A stretch of DNA of 25,915 nucleotides from a virus. Lineage: Duplodnaviria > Heunggongvirae > Uroviricota > Caudoviricetes. Below are positions 6,001 through 8,745 of this stretch, one piece after another (positions within the stretch are counted from its first letter, which is position 1; each line of letters begins with the position of its first letter). Made by a program: the position numbers. The DNA lies in IMG/VR virus record IMGVR_UViG_2529292922_000015. One strand, written 5' to 3'.

Positions 6001-8745
6001 CAGCGGCGCGGGTCATCCGCACCATACAGAGGCGCTGGCATGATTTTCTCCTGATTAAATTGCGTGAATAGCGTGACGAGGGAAGGGGAGAGTTACTGGT
6101 GCAAAGGGTATATCGTCGTCAAAATCCATCGGAGGTTCGTTGTGTTGTGCTGGTGATGATTGCTGCTGTGGCTTCTGTGATTGCCTGCTGGCTGCTTGTT
6201 GTTTGCTGTCGCCAATGCCGCCAAGCATTTGCATCACGCCATTAATTCCGACATGAACCTCGGTTGTGTAACGGTCTTGCCCTGACTGGTCTTTCCACTT
6301 TCTGGTTCTCAGCATTCCCTCGAAATAAATCTGATCACCTTTTTTCACATACTGCCCCACGACCTCAGCCAGTTTCCCGGATACAGCAACACGATGCCAT
6401 TCAGTCAATTCCTTTTGCTCGCCAGTATTTTTATCTCGCCATTGTTCTGACGTGGCTATTGTCAGGTTAGCGAACGCTGTTCCTGATGGTGAGTATCGAA
6501 CTTCCGGGTCTTGTCCTACCCGACCAAGGATAATCACCTTATTTATCCCGCGAGAACTCATTTGCTCCACCTCTTGCCAGTTTTTATGTTGCTTATAATT
6601 GATTGAGATACACCCATGTCTTTTGCTATCTTGTACTGACTCTCTTTTTCAGAGAGTCTTTTCCTAATTTCTATAACCTGCCACTCTGTTAATTTTGCAC
6701 CATGATGAGCATGACCTTTCTTGGCTCCACGATGCCTTCCTTTTGCTATCTTGTCGTCCATGTTTTCTTGCGCGCTACCTAAAAAGAGATGTTCAGGATT
6801 AACGCAGCATTGGTTATCGCATTTGTGGCAAACCATCTTCCCAGATGGAATGGGGGAGTGATAAAGCTCAAAAGCAACCCGATGAGAAAGCATTGTTACG
6901 CCAAAGGCTACAAATTTTGTGTATCCTCCTTTGTTTTTTGAATAGGTAGACTCCCAGCAACCTGTTGTTTCATTAACTTTGTAGCTGGACTCGAATCTTT
7001 TAATAATTCCGTCCAAGTGAGACATTTATGCCGCCTGTTTTAGTTCGTTAACTCTGATGTTCATTACCTGAACGCATTTAGCCTGTGCCTCCTCGTTGCC
7101 AGCCATTAATTGCCAGTCACGCTGATAACGCTCGATGAGTTTTTTCTTGTCAGTTTCTGTTGATGCATAATCGCTGAAGTCTTTCAGGATTTGTTCGCAG
7201 TCAACCGATGGAGATGTCTGGTTGGTATTTTCTGGTGATGGTTTGTTATCTGATGCTGGGATTGCCCATCCCGGCAGCGATGGAGGGAGCCAGTAAAATC
7301 CTGTTCCATCCTTGAGTTTTGCCCTGTGCCATCCCTGCTTTTTATCGAGAGATGTTTGTGCGAAACCTTCCTCAAGGTTATACAGATACCGACCGATTCC
7401 CCACTGAACGGCAGCGCGCTTCATTGCACCGGAACGACCACCTTTTACGGCTTCTACCTGCGTGTTTTCAGCAGCATCCCATTTGGTTACCCATTCGGAA
7501 TCAATCCTGATTGATATGCCGCATTCAACGCCTCCGTTGTTGGGAATATCTCGGTATTCATTGCGCCATCCTGCTTTGCCGCAAACATCGTCAAGGCGTT
7601 TCATGATTGCCCTGTTCGTGACATAAGCCAGCACCATAGCCCACACCTTGCCATCGCGTGTTTTACCGCTTTGCTGTATTCGCCATTCGATATCTTCAGG
7701 GCTGAATGGCTCATCGAATTTATTCAAATCCATAATTCACCTCAGAATGGACATGGACCAAGGAAATAACGCTGATTTAATACTTCGGTCTTTGCCGCAT
7801 TTAAAAAGACGCGAACACCTTCACGATCTCCCTTCTGGCGATACATTAACGCCTGCTGCGTGTACATGCGTCTCTGTAACTTGCTCTCCTTCACTGTGGT
7901 TGCAAGTGACATGAATATCTCCTTCGTTACCGATTAATTCTTTCATCTGACGAATGAATTCTTCGTCTGACCAGTTATCTGTAAAACTCATTTCCTGCGG
8001 TACCACGGAAGGTTGATAGCTGATTTCATCGCTTTATTTGCTTCAAGCCACATTTTTGAATCACCAATAAATCTGGCTATTACTGCTTTGTTTTGTGCCG
8101 CACGAAGCATCTGGTGATTAATGGCTATTTCATTGCGCATAATAAGACCTCAACTCTTTTCCATCCGTCACGTAATTTACGGGTGATTCGTTCAAGTAAA
8201 GATTCATTTAGTTGGAAGGCACCCATGCGAGCGCCTCCCGCGATTACGTAAATCATGGGTGGTTCCTTATATTGGTTTTATTAGTAGGTTATTTTTGTTG
8301 CGAATACTTCGCCTTTTACGATGGCTGTTATGATATTTTTAGCAACATCTTCTGATGCACCAACCTTGATAAGGCCAGCAAGTATTTTGTTATTTACTTC
8401 TTTCCGGTGAGCTTTATCCTTTGCTCTACGCTCTTCTTCGTCCTTGATTCTTTTTTCTTCTGCTATTCTGGCTTGCTCTTTTGCTTCAGCCTCGCGACGG
8501 ATTCTTTCAGCCTCCTCCTGTGCTTTTCTGCGTTCTGCTTCAATTGCTGCCTGCTTTTCTCTTTCAGCTCGTTCTGCTGCCTCTTTTGCTTCGCGCTGTG
8601 CTCGTTGCTCGGCTTCAATACGTTCACGCTCTGCACGTTCCGCTGCTGCCTTAGCTTCTGCTTCTCGCCTTGCTGCTGCTTCAATTTCGGCTTTTGCCTT
8701 TGCTTCGGCTTCTGCTCTGGCTTTCTCTTCAGCTTCTCTTTTTAA

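Follow-up and report, generated by a model that had tools for sequence, protein, structure and literature searches.

Through the acidic C-terminal tip of SSB (single-stranded DNA-binding protein), which serves as a hub, more than 12 enzymes of bacterial replication, repair and recombination locate single-stranded DNA (ssDNA), and the free terminal Phe of the tip is regarded as essential. What, then, is to be made of a prophage ssb gene that encodes the host's own tip and reads on beyond it? The gene lies in IMG/VR virus record IMGVR_UViG_2529292922_000015, of which we analysed a stretch of 25,915 nucleotides, here called the window. The original prediction, made from the sequence alone, was that the reading frame continues for 15 codons past DDDIPF to a TAA at 6055–6057, and both a direct reading of the minus strand and the ORF list bear this out. 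Judged by sequence comparison, the extension is a real, conserved tail of fixed length, shared by hundreds of ssDNA-binding proteins of gamma-proteobacterial phages. It is apparently also a so far undescribed modification of a well-studied docking tip: we found no description of an SSB tail extension in the literature on the tail strings, SSB and phage SSB, and among PDB sequences the matches to the SSB tip stop at Phe and the tail was not found.

The SSB of the window

The gene likely starts at ATG 6561, a putative start that overlaps the stop codon of the endonuclease gene just upstream (ATGA) and makes the Phe of the tip residue 153 and the tail residues 154–168 (Table 1). At the tip the minus strand reads ATA CCC TTT (I-P-F), with the F codon at 6105–6103, and goes on with GCA CCA GTA ACT CTC CCC TTC CCT CGT CAC GCT ATT CAC GCA ATT at 6102–6058; the 168-residue protein of the ORF list agrees with this reading. 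The product has the makings of a bacterial-type SSB, an OB fold followed by a disordered linker and an acidic D-D-D-I-P-F. The match of residues 6–104 to PF00436 has an E-value of 1.7e-36 (124.8 bits vs a cutoff of 26), and the AlphaFold2 model has the strand pattern expected of an OB fold over residues ~5–110 (pLDDT 80–90) and a pLDDT below 50 from residue 115 to 168. Residues 1–153 match E. coli SSB at 56% identity, the OB domain being much closer, and the gene shares 99.3% DNA identity with the ssb of phage HK75. Across our alignment A2 the linker is weakly conserved, F147, P152 and F153 are invariant, and L158, within the tail, is almost so. Shared with E. coli SSB are the OB fold, a linker that is disordered and the 13 residues of the tip, which are identical to the C terminus of the E. 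coli protein (PDB chains 1eqq and 7f2n). There, however, the Phe is terminal, as in the canonical SSB C terminus, whereas in the window 15 conserved residues follow F153, leaving it with no free alpha-carboxylate.

Table 1. Features of the ssb locus, in coordinates of the window
Feature	Position	Strand	Basis or remark
ssb (prophage)	6055..6561	-	168 aa + stop
TAA stop of ssb	6057-6055	-	sequence reading
OB-fold ssDNA-binding and tetramerisation domain, residues 6-104	6250..6546	-	Pfam PF00436
Gln/Pro/Ser-rich disordered linker, residues ~113-140	6142..6225	-	AlphaFold2, alignment A2
Acidic host-type 13-residue tip, residues 141-153, internal rather than C-terminal	6103..6141	-	PDB comparison
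15-residue C-terminal tail, residues 154-168	6058..6102	-	sequence reading, conservation
F-A junction (between 6103 and 6102), putative homing site	6100..6105	-	endonuclease insertion in relatives
abc2 (anti-RecBCD protein 2)	5745..6041	-	Pfam PF11043, E 4.3e-62
HNH_3 endonuclease, between erf and ssb; not part of the tail	6558..7025	-	Pfam PF13392, E 3.7e-13
Erf-type (Rad52/22 family) single-strand annealing protein	7026..7733	-	Pfam PF04098, E 7.3e-26

In the AlphaFold2 monomer the tail of the window SSB is predicted to be disordered and does not dock on the OB fold. On this ground we discarded the idea that the tail caps the OB fold of its own chain, the diversity of the scaffolds that bear the tail also speaking against it; with residues 115–168 disordered and undocked in the model, the tail is predicted to act in trans. 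Programmed frameshifting at CCC TTT G was rejected as well, the slippery pattern being out of frame and the conservation being at the level of the peptide.

Frequency and conservation of the tail

An open run of 15 codons after a lost stop has a probability of about (61/64)^15, or ~0.5, and so the mere presence of an extension is no proof. Three features go beyond chance: the tail is conserved, its length is fixed and it recurs elsewhere. Among 115 phage ORFs with a DFDDDIPF tip, sampled without bias, 89 (77%) end at F, 22 (19%) bear a tail of 14–15 residues and only four carry other extensions; the residue following F is A in 24 of the 26 extended ORFs. That the host SSB and 77% of the sampled ORFs end at F, and that fifteen open codons are fairly likely by chance, fits neutral read-through after the loss of a stop. 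Read-through would, however, leave a spread of lengths and sequences, whereas 22 of the 26 extensions form a single family, conserved over scaffolds and hosts, and an error of sequencing or assembly is at odds with the identical sequence in many independent records. These comparative data refute both explanations, to which we give next to no credence. Such read-through corresponds to the first of the two explanations originally offered, the loss of a stop, and is not supported: the tail is the rule in its SSB clade, is kept through synonymous changes at a fixed 14–15 residues and recurs on unrelated scaffolds in phages of distant hosts. The tail DNA, identical in numerous independent genome records of phages and bacteria, excludes a sequencing error at the expected stop.

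The tail is widespread. Among the 120 closest representatives of SSB clusters (90% clusters), about 110 bear the same or a related tail, and some of them stand for 500–1000 member sequences. The tail also occurs in 435 IMG/VR stretches, in 297 complete E. coli genomes out of 5426 and in 124 plasmid records, mostly non-mobilizable and of 40–95 kb; phages with identical or related tails include HK75, mEp235, mEpX2, epsilon34 and g341c. Two queries made of tip and tail were covered to at least 80% by 166 and 231 INPHARED records. A search for related loci gave 80 E. coli loci, and as these were near-identical, we adopted degenerate DNA patterns for wider sampling. A 40-residue C-terminal query against a large protein database returned only 14 entries, all fragments, and an exhaustive comparison of the 33-residue tip and tail with cluster representatives only 14 matches, mostly fragments; the latter number is low because short queries and clustering at 50% hide the tail. 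In annotation, thousands of tailed proteins carry the plain label "single-stranded DNA-binding protein". Present on about one in five of the E. coli-type tips that phage proteins carry, such a natural and conserved cap would mean that phages systematically re-wire the SSB hub.

In the sequences collected, the tail has the form A-P-[IV]-[GT]-L-x-[YFH]-[PG]-x-x-x-[ILM]-x-x-[ILMV]-COOH, with 14–15 residues and always at the extreme C terminus; 111 of the 113 unique variants are 14 or 15 residues long. The tail of the window, which has 15 residues, opens with A-P-V-T-L-P-F and closes with HAI, fits this form, including the hydrophobic end. Among 120 IMG/VR matches to DIPFAP[IVM]GL, 118 reach a stop, all of them 9–10 residues past the motif, and the remaining two run off their contigs; 28 of the 34 genome matches to the tail pattern likewise stop 9–10 residues past the motif, 27 being in gamma-proteobacterial records, and the other six look like chance matches. 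The conservation of D-I-P-F-A-P-[IVM]-G-L is partly imposed by the search patterns, and only the positions outside the pattern, the set of 120 representatives and the sample of 115 ORFs are free of that bias. Several synonymous DNA variants encode identical tails. We base the argument for selection at the peptide level on these variants and not on pN/pS, which is 0.57 over all tail pairs, because the synonymous sites are saturated (pS 0.77). Alignments showing an extension both common and inert would have spoken against the original prediction: common it is, but its conservation argues against its being inert.

Scaffolds and hosts

Related tails of 14–15 residues are found on at least eight N-terminal ssDNA-binding scaffolds that are unrelated by BLAST, namely the PF00436 SSB, phrog_743, phrog_44, phrog_2544, phrog_4477, the gp2.5-like phrog_112, phrog_24909 and an Aeromonas-phage type; identical tail subtypes recur on different scaffolds, and the primase/helicase of Klebsiella phage VLCpiM5b bears a tail as well. 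The hosts include Escherichia, Salmonella, Klebsiella, Proteus, Vibrio and marine gamma-proteobacteria. Among the genome records that are named, tail subtype goes with host order, Enterobacterales having a 15-residue subtype that ends in RHAIYVI and marine taxa a 14-residue subtype that ends in PALLNCM. The cause could be that genes recombine in pools limited by host, and not that the tail has adapted to a host protein. Clustering of the neighbouring genes of 89 dereplicated tail-bearing loci revealed no gene family common to their neighbourhoods.

A parallel comes from phage T7, whose SSB, gp2.5, and primase-helicase, gp4, have acidic C-terminal tails with an aromatic end and share a docking partner, the phage DNA polymerase. 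In Klebsiella Mydovirus, too, the SSB-like protein and the primase/helicase both have an acidic tip plus tail, and the gp2.5-like scaffold is among the bearers, which suggests that the tail is a docking module common to several replisome proteins. The systems differ in that the aromatic residue is terminal in T7 and internal in the tailed proteins, and in that the lambdoid carriers encode no polymerase. Within Mydovirus genomes, the tail states of the SSB-like protein and the primase/helicase covary; we dropped this covariation as evidence, since it fails in rV5.

The F–A junction and its endonucleases

Downstream of the ssb stop, abc2 starts after 13 nt, with GGAG at 6047–6050. Upstream, the endonuclease gene of the window is missing in HK75, where erf abuts ssb; the Erf-type annealing protein, whose gene is annotated as Erf-like in HK75, Sf6, Huey and epsilon34, is the recombination partner module of the ssb locus. 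A capped tip bears on recombineering, in which the SSB tip is matched to the annealing protein to port systems between hosts.

At the bond between tip and tail, the relatives differ. Precisely here, with the F codon on one side and the A/P codons on the other, a phrog_2340 endonuclease gene is inserted in Sf6, Huey and Salmonella prophages: the SSB of Sf6 stops with TAG right after TTC, and DNA identity to the window resumes at the CCA (Pro) codon; the Huey SSB differs from that of the window in its last codons only (MNFDDEIPF). The Sf6-type insertion leaves an SSB with a free tip and a tail that ends the endonuclease. In Sf6 this endonuclease, of the gp26 type, has the same 14–15 tail residues, encoded by the same DNA upstream of abc2, and the Sf6 GenBank note already mentions an uninterrupted run of 14 amino acids shared with E. 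coli SSB; in the window, in contrast, nothing occupies the site and the SSB itself ends in the tail. Between rV5 and Bas52, the difference is an indel of tail plus endonuclease that begins immediately behind the F codon. The endonucleases of Sf6, Huey and rV5 have no Pfam match; PHROGs places them in endonuclease families. The junction has the presence/absence pattern of a homing site, with altered flanking codons and with the window as the empty allele, and these comparisons show the tail to be gained and lost there, often along with homing-endonuclease genes.

Could the 45 nt then be kept as DNA, as a homing target, co-conversion tract, mosaic boundary or abc2 signal, with the peptide incidental? 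The lambdoid tail DNA does move as a mosaic unit of its own, tail and abc2 occurring without the ssb tip in Sf6, IME10, N7 and Huey (with 99–100% DNA identity to the window in the first three) and ssb and tail without an adjacent abc2 in epsilon34, and endonuclease genes are found at or beside the tail in Sf6, Huey, Salmonella prophages, rV5 and other Vequintavirinae. However, the peptide is kept across Escherichia, Proteus, Vibrio and marine phages despite the saturation of the DNA, identical tails are encoded by synonymous variants, and most tail-bearing loci have neither an adjacent endonuclease gene nor abc2. The association with endonucleases is better explained by homing enzymes that target a conserved coding sequence, and we consider conservation for the sake of the DNA very unlikely.

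Possible roles of the tail

The reading that we favour, with a confidence that falls just short of even, is that the tail is a selected C-terminal peptide module and acts as a portable specificity switch on a host-like tip. By making the terminal Phe internal, the tail would remove the free alpha-carboxylate, and this would affect the host partners with a basic lip, such as ExoI, RecQ, chi, PriA, RecO and RecG. The basic lip of SSB partners anchors the tip's alpha-carboxyl group (PMC10164576), and in RecO the carboxyl end of SSB is anchored by R132 (PMC3152348). The phage SSB on phage ssDNA would then no longer recruit such enzymes in the canonical way, and the tip–tail junction would, together with the hydrophobic C terminus, probably form a composite linear motif for a different partner, most likely host-encoded and lineage-specific. 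Since the OB domain closely resembles its E. coli counterpart, phage and host SSB may also form mixed tetramers, and in these the host tips could be diluted. The loss of canonical docking and the existence of a new partner are what we infer from these observations.

The best experimental proxy for the effect of a natural extension on canonical docking is SSB-C-term-GFP, in which residues are likewise added after the terminal Phe, Phe177 (Dubiel et al. 2020, PMC7293020): with GFP fused right after it, DNA binding was kept, ExoI binding was abolished and the fusion was dominant negative (PMC7293020). The analogy is limited by the nature of the addition, a folded domain of 27 kDa as against a conserved peptide of 15 residues under natural selection. 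The other explanation first offered, a masked or altered interaction tail, is the one that the evidence favours, if by inference.

Near-isogenic phages with and without the tail exist (rV5 vs Bas52; HK75 vs Huey or Sf6), and it follows that the tail is dispensable for basic replication and recombination. Such dispensability is expected of an accessory, conflict-driven trait, and would suit a tail that has no partner of its own and solely blocks the Phe carboxylate of the phage SSB, and of its mixed tetramers with host SSB, against host nucleases, helicases and other tip-dependent factors. In the same direction, SSB-like ORFs with a DDDLPF tip have short, unrelated AP... extensions of just 5–9 residues, which hint that capping alone may outweigh a specific new epitope. 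Further, the SSB-like protein Bas52_0087 of phage RudolfGeigy is the trigger of the ExoI-linked defence system DRT10 (bioRxiv 10.64898/2026.04.29.721553). It belongs to the phrog_4477 family of the tailed SSB-like proteins of rV5 and Klebsiella phages and has the same FDDDIPF tip; it differs in ending at Phe, without a tail, whereas rV5 gp209 has the tail plus a downstream endonuclease gene. A pure mask would, however, have no need of a conserved sequence of fixed length over at least eight scaffolds and distant hosts, and would leave identical subtypes on unrelated scaffolds unexplained. We think masking alone improbable.

Against the specificity switch itself stands the strict keeping of a host-identical tip ahead of the tail, which is unexplained if docking is abolished. 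The retained tip would make sense if it were exposed later, as when a cytoplasmic protease clips the F-A-P junction and frees DDDIPF in a timed unmasking; alternatively, the tail may target SSB for turnover. The invariable position at the extreme C terminus, the fixed length and the non-polar endings (..AIHAI, ..AIYVI, ..LLNCM, ..FLHMI) are compatible with such a pro-peptide or degron, non-polar C termini being known to favour degradation in E. coli, and the best-conserved residues flank the F–A bond, with A at +1 nearly throughout the unbiased sample. On the other hand, we know of no protease with F-A-P specificity, and a common docking motif is easier to picture than a degron borne by both SSBs and a primase/helicase. 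The ClpX C-terminal degrons fall into classes such as the ssrA-like ...LAA and the MuA-like ...RRKKAI; some tails have basic residues 6–7 positions before the end, but none comes close to either class. A pro-peptide or degron seems unlikely to us, if less so than masking alone.

Of similarly low probability, in our estimate, is that tip and tail together form a phage counter-measure, either a composite linear motif that makes the universal docking tip a decoy or inhibitor for one host enzyme (e.g., ExoI, RecJ or RecQ) or a means of escape from defence systems that sense the tip. [quoted passage not shown] For any of these roles, the near-isogenic pairs provide natural tail-present and tail-absent material, and a peptide of this length lends itself to binding and pull-down assays.

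The consensus for binding to the beta clamp is QL[SD]LF or QLxLxL. The tail motifs PVTLPF and PIGLPY depart from it at position 1, where they have an invariant Pro in place of Gln; as a lead only, they fit x-hydrophobic-x-L-x-aromatic and resemble QLSLPL of Hda.

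A conserved extension past the SSB tip

The window SSB, 168 residues long if it starts at the ATG at 6561, belongs to the bacterial-type SSB family (Pfam SSB domain at residues 6-104), and its 13-residue acidic tip does not differ from the E. coli one, but the Phe whose terminal position defines the canonical tip (here F153) is followed by 15 further residues, 154-168, which we call the tail. AlphaFold2 gave the OB fold at pLDDT 80-90 and left the C-terminal third disordered. Read on its own (minus) strand, the gene ends GAT TTT GAC GAC GAT ATA CCC TTT, at which point lies the junction of tip and tail, and continues GCA CCA GTA ACT CTC CCC TTC CCT CGT CAC GCT ATT CAC GCA ATT TAA; coordinates and sequence of the extension are exactly those of the original prediction, as read from the minus strand and the ORF list.

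Fifteen open codons past a missing stop are not unusual by chance, and a comparative test was therefore needed. Of the 120 cluster representatives (90% identity) closest to the window SSB, whose hosts include Escherichia, Salmonella, Klebsiella, Citrobacter, Enterobacter, Kluyvera and Pluralibacter, 78 end in PFAP and the tail, about 34 more in close variants (PFSPVTL..., PFALATL...) and only seven at the Phe. The tail is also found in HK75, mEp235, mEpX2, epsilon34, g341c and NM-3; of 5426 complete E. coli genomes, 297 have DNA encoding tip and tail, annotated as plain ssb. The alignment with other SSBs thus shows an extension that is conserved and common, not rare, and the proposal that an original stop had been lost, or a sequencing error made, is contradicted by the same tail recurring in so many phages, genomes and close representatives; neutral read-through is refuted by the same comparisons. 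Conservation at the DNA level is very improbable, given the synonymous divergence: several synonymous DNA variants encode identical tails.

Distribution over scaffolds and hosts

In tblastn, one tip-and-tail peptide had full-length matches in 166 records of phage genomes and another in 231. Among these are proteins that differ widely in their N-terminal parts, such as that of Proteus phage V3, those of Vibrio phages K360 (ending ...APVGLQFGKKFMHVI) and 1.036.O (...APIGLMHNNNFMHCI), an SSB-like protein of 406 residues from Klebsiella phage KB57 (...APIGLPYGRNFIHCI), rV5 gp209 and a protein of the phi92-like phage PD06. With a degenerate DNA pattern for D-I-P-F-A-P-[IVM]-G-L, we matched at least 120 IMG/VR contigs; the stop comes 9-10 residues past the pattern in all 118 ORFs that reach one, the other two of 120 leaving the contig. 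On bacterial contigs, one genome per species, 28 of 34 matches were bona fide; the other six, without tip context, are about as many as a rough estimate predicts by chance. All but one of the 28 lie in gamma-proteobacterial records (Proteus, Providencia, Moellerella, Pantoea, Trabulsiella, Tatumella, Atlantibacter, Vibrio, Pseudoalteromonas, Rheinheimera, Colwellia, Idiomarina, Oceanisphaera and Glaciecola), the last being a MAG labelled Parasphingorhabdus. Plasmid matches are mainly on non-mobilizable replicons 40-95 kb in size, which are probably phage-plasmids.

With their last 45 residues removed, the carriers fall into eight BLAST-unrelated clusters, and their PHROGs comprise the SSB families 44 and 743, the gp2.5-like 112, and three without assigned function, 2544, 4477 and 24909. 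Tip and tail also end the primase/helicase of Klebsiella phage VLCpiM5b (...DDDTPFAPIGLQYAKHAIYVI; at 1-1581 of its locus L009, ...LGPDDDTPFAPIGLQYAKHAIYVI), and the module is therefore not confined to ssDNA-binding proteins. Different scaffolds can bear one and the same tail subtype, as APIGLQEGKLFLHMI does on phrog_2544 and on the gp2.5-like scaffold, and in named genome records subtype tracks host order, the 15-residue ...RHAIYVI in Enterobacterales and the 14-residue ...PALLNCM in marine taxa.

A length of 14 or 15 residues is shared by 111 of 113 unique variants. Where the search pattern left the sequence free, an aromatic residue stands at position 7, P or G at position 8 and I, L or M at position 12 (11 in the 14-residue class), and the tail closes with I, L, M or V. 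Since part of the motif was imposed by the search patterns, we sampled IMG/VR contigs merely encoding DFDDDIPF. In the resulting 115 complete ORFs the Phe is last in 89, a 14-15-residue tail follows in 22, and other short extensions in four; next to the Phe, 24 of these 26 extended ORFs have A and one has S. A single family of extensions, and not a spread of lengths and sequences, argues against random stop loss. A separate IMG/VR scan for DDDLPF followed by A-P gave 12 SSB-like C-termini, ten with only 5-9 extra residues (among loci L254-L269: APLDWRLG, APIHYSLT, APEFR, APSIA, APWTEA), so capped tips appear to exist beyond the 14-15-residue family.

The primase/helicases of rV5 and Bas52 end in FEDDETPF without the tail. 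The Rheinheimera MAG locus L216 has two ORFs with near-identical tip and tail (5719-5744 and 6267-6292, one strand, 548 bp apart; the second ending ..CWRMLHCV), perhaps a tandem pair, perhaps one gene that has been split. Three INPHARED records of about 137-146 kb, named 'Campylobacter phage D#, C2, C3' (MG065647.1, MG065655.1, MG065656.1), carry an rV5-like SSB tip and tail nearly identical to those of Escherichia phages, and look mislabelled or contaminated.

Gain and loss at the junction

Sf6 SSB ends ...DDSDIPF and TAG, and the next gene is gp26, a phrog_2340 endonuclease that has the tail at its C-terminus; DNA identity with the window restarts at the CCA (Pro) codon and runs at 99-100% on into abc2. 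The Sf6 record itself mentions a 14-residue identity with an 'E. coli SSB'. The family profile of the endonuclease stops about 16 residues short of its C-terminus, so the tail is foreign to it. Huey SSB is of the HK75/window type except for its last codons (MNFDDEIPF-stop), followed by the same kind of endonuclease with the tail at its end; likewise, in P0041, an SSB cluster of 102 members from Salmonella prophages, the Phe is the last residue, and the endonuclease that follows ends in the complete 15-residue tail. From the arrangement of the sequences, these alleles would be a free-standing homing endonuclease gene placed in a tail-bearing ssb, with flanks co-converted, and the window allele the empty putative homing site. 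In about 108 further E. coli genomes the match is limited to the tail half of the query; these are probably split alleles with unannotated Sf6-type endonuclease genes ending in the tail; no annotated feature lies beneath such matches, e.g., NZ_CP173249.1 1553842-1553887.

In Vequintavirus, rV5 gp209 with the tail and Bas52_0087, ending ...SFDDDIPF-stop, are an indel of about 640 bp apart, beginning directly after the F codon and comprising the tail and an overlapping endonuclease gene. The rV5 endonuclease gp208 starts inside the tail codons, with a 29-nt overlap (L008 2059-2682, against L247, Bas52 47208-47270), and Bas52 has neither tail nor endonuclease. Beneath the tail match, several further Vequintavirus records have the annotation 'hypothetical protein | endonuclease'. 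P0039 is a genuine tail-less allele without any endonuclease. Swapped at a precise junction, the tail is therefore accessory and not needed for viability.

Possible role of the tail

The ssb tail is real, common, conserved and modular, and we hold with high confidence that it is a selected functional peptide. SSB partners take the terminal Phe into a hydrophobic pocket whose basic lip anchors its alpha-carboxyl group (PMC10164576), in RecO through R132 (PMC3152348), and GFP directly after the Phe leaves DNA binding normal, makes ExoI binding undetectable and is dominant negative (PMC7293020). The tail would abolish or alter canonical docking. The idea of a masked or altered partner-interaction tail was on the right track; the altered docking itself we only infer.

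Our tentative preference, held at slightly under even odds, is that tip and tail form a trans-acting composite motif for some other partner, since many scaffolds bear it with conserved sequence and length, the tail is predicted by AlphaFold2 to be disordered and undocked, and an SSB-like protein and a primase/helicase share it in one phage group. The partner would probably be host-encoded, because we found no phage gene common to the carriers among the neighbours of tail-bearing loci and because near-isogenic phages differ in tail and endonuclease only. A pro-peptide or degron is unlikely, though the conserved F/A-P junction and non-polar terminus fit it, and retention of a host-identical tip would be sensible were it exposed later. 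Less likely still is a pure mask, which the short AP... caps elsewhere fit and the conserved tail sequence does not. PVTLPF and PIGLPY resemble QLxLxL, the hexapeptide of clamp binding, and especially Hda QLSLPL, but lack the Gln; we keep this as a lead only.

PDB sequence searches returned no solved structure with residues past the Phe, and the tail strings gave nothing relevant in open-access full text and bioRxiv, where coverage is partial and an earlier description is possible; the tail is apparently uncharacterised so far. Papers on phage SSB tails take the tip as terminal, e.g., HK620 SSB (NDYPPF). A 2026 preprint (bioRxiv 10.64898/2026.04.29.721553) names Bas52_0087 as what triggers DRT10, a defence system under ExoI control, and draws attention to its FDDDIPF tip; as this trigger is the tail-less form, the contrast between presence and absence of the tail in its family is experimentally attractive.

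Prophage context

The window, an integrated lambdoid prophage, is 99.8% identical over the ssb region to one in E. coli O127:H6 E2348/69.

Features of the prophage and of the 3' end of ssb
Feature	Position	Strand	Remark
lambda-type integrase	1419-2489		adjoins host pectinesterase-like gene
abc2 (anti-RecBCD)	5745-6041	-	after ssb in minus-strand order
ssb stop TAA	6057-6055	-	read on minus strand
15 tail codons of ssb	6102-6058	-	read on minus strand
ssb Phe codon (TTT)	6105-6103	-	read on minus strand
HNH_3 endonuclease	6558-7025	-	between erf and ssb
erf (Rad52/22 family)	7026-7733	-	first in local minus-strand order erf, HNH_3, ssb, abc2
istA (rve integrase core + HTH)	8964-9986	+	part of IS21-family element
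istB	9983-10765	+	part of IS21-family element
cI-type repressor	13568-14281
Toprim + DnaB-like primase/helicase, 626 aa	16089-17969	+
LpxR-family outer-membrane protein gene	20796-21755	-	PF09982, E 6.8e-40

The HK75 ssb is the same, tail included, without the upstream HNH_3 gene, whose TGA overlaps the ssb ATG in the window (ATGA); the two ssb genes start differently, MSSRGI against MASRGV. Gene order and codons together suggest that a homing endonuclease has inserted a second time, now at the ssb 5' end, and left a co-conversion tract. The window primase/helicase ends ...ENVTEY, without SSB-like tip or tail, unlike that of the Klebsiella Mydovirus. An IS21-family element (8964-10765, plus strand) lies in the early region, and the LpxR-family gene is a probable prophage moron.
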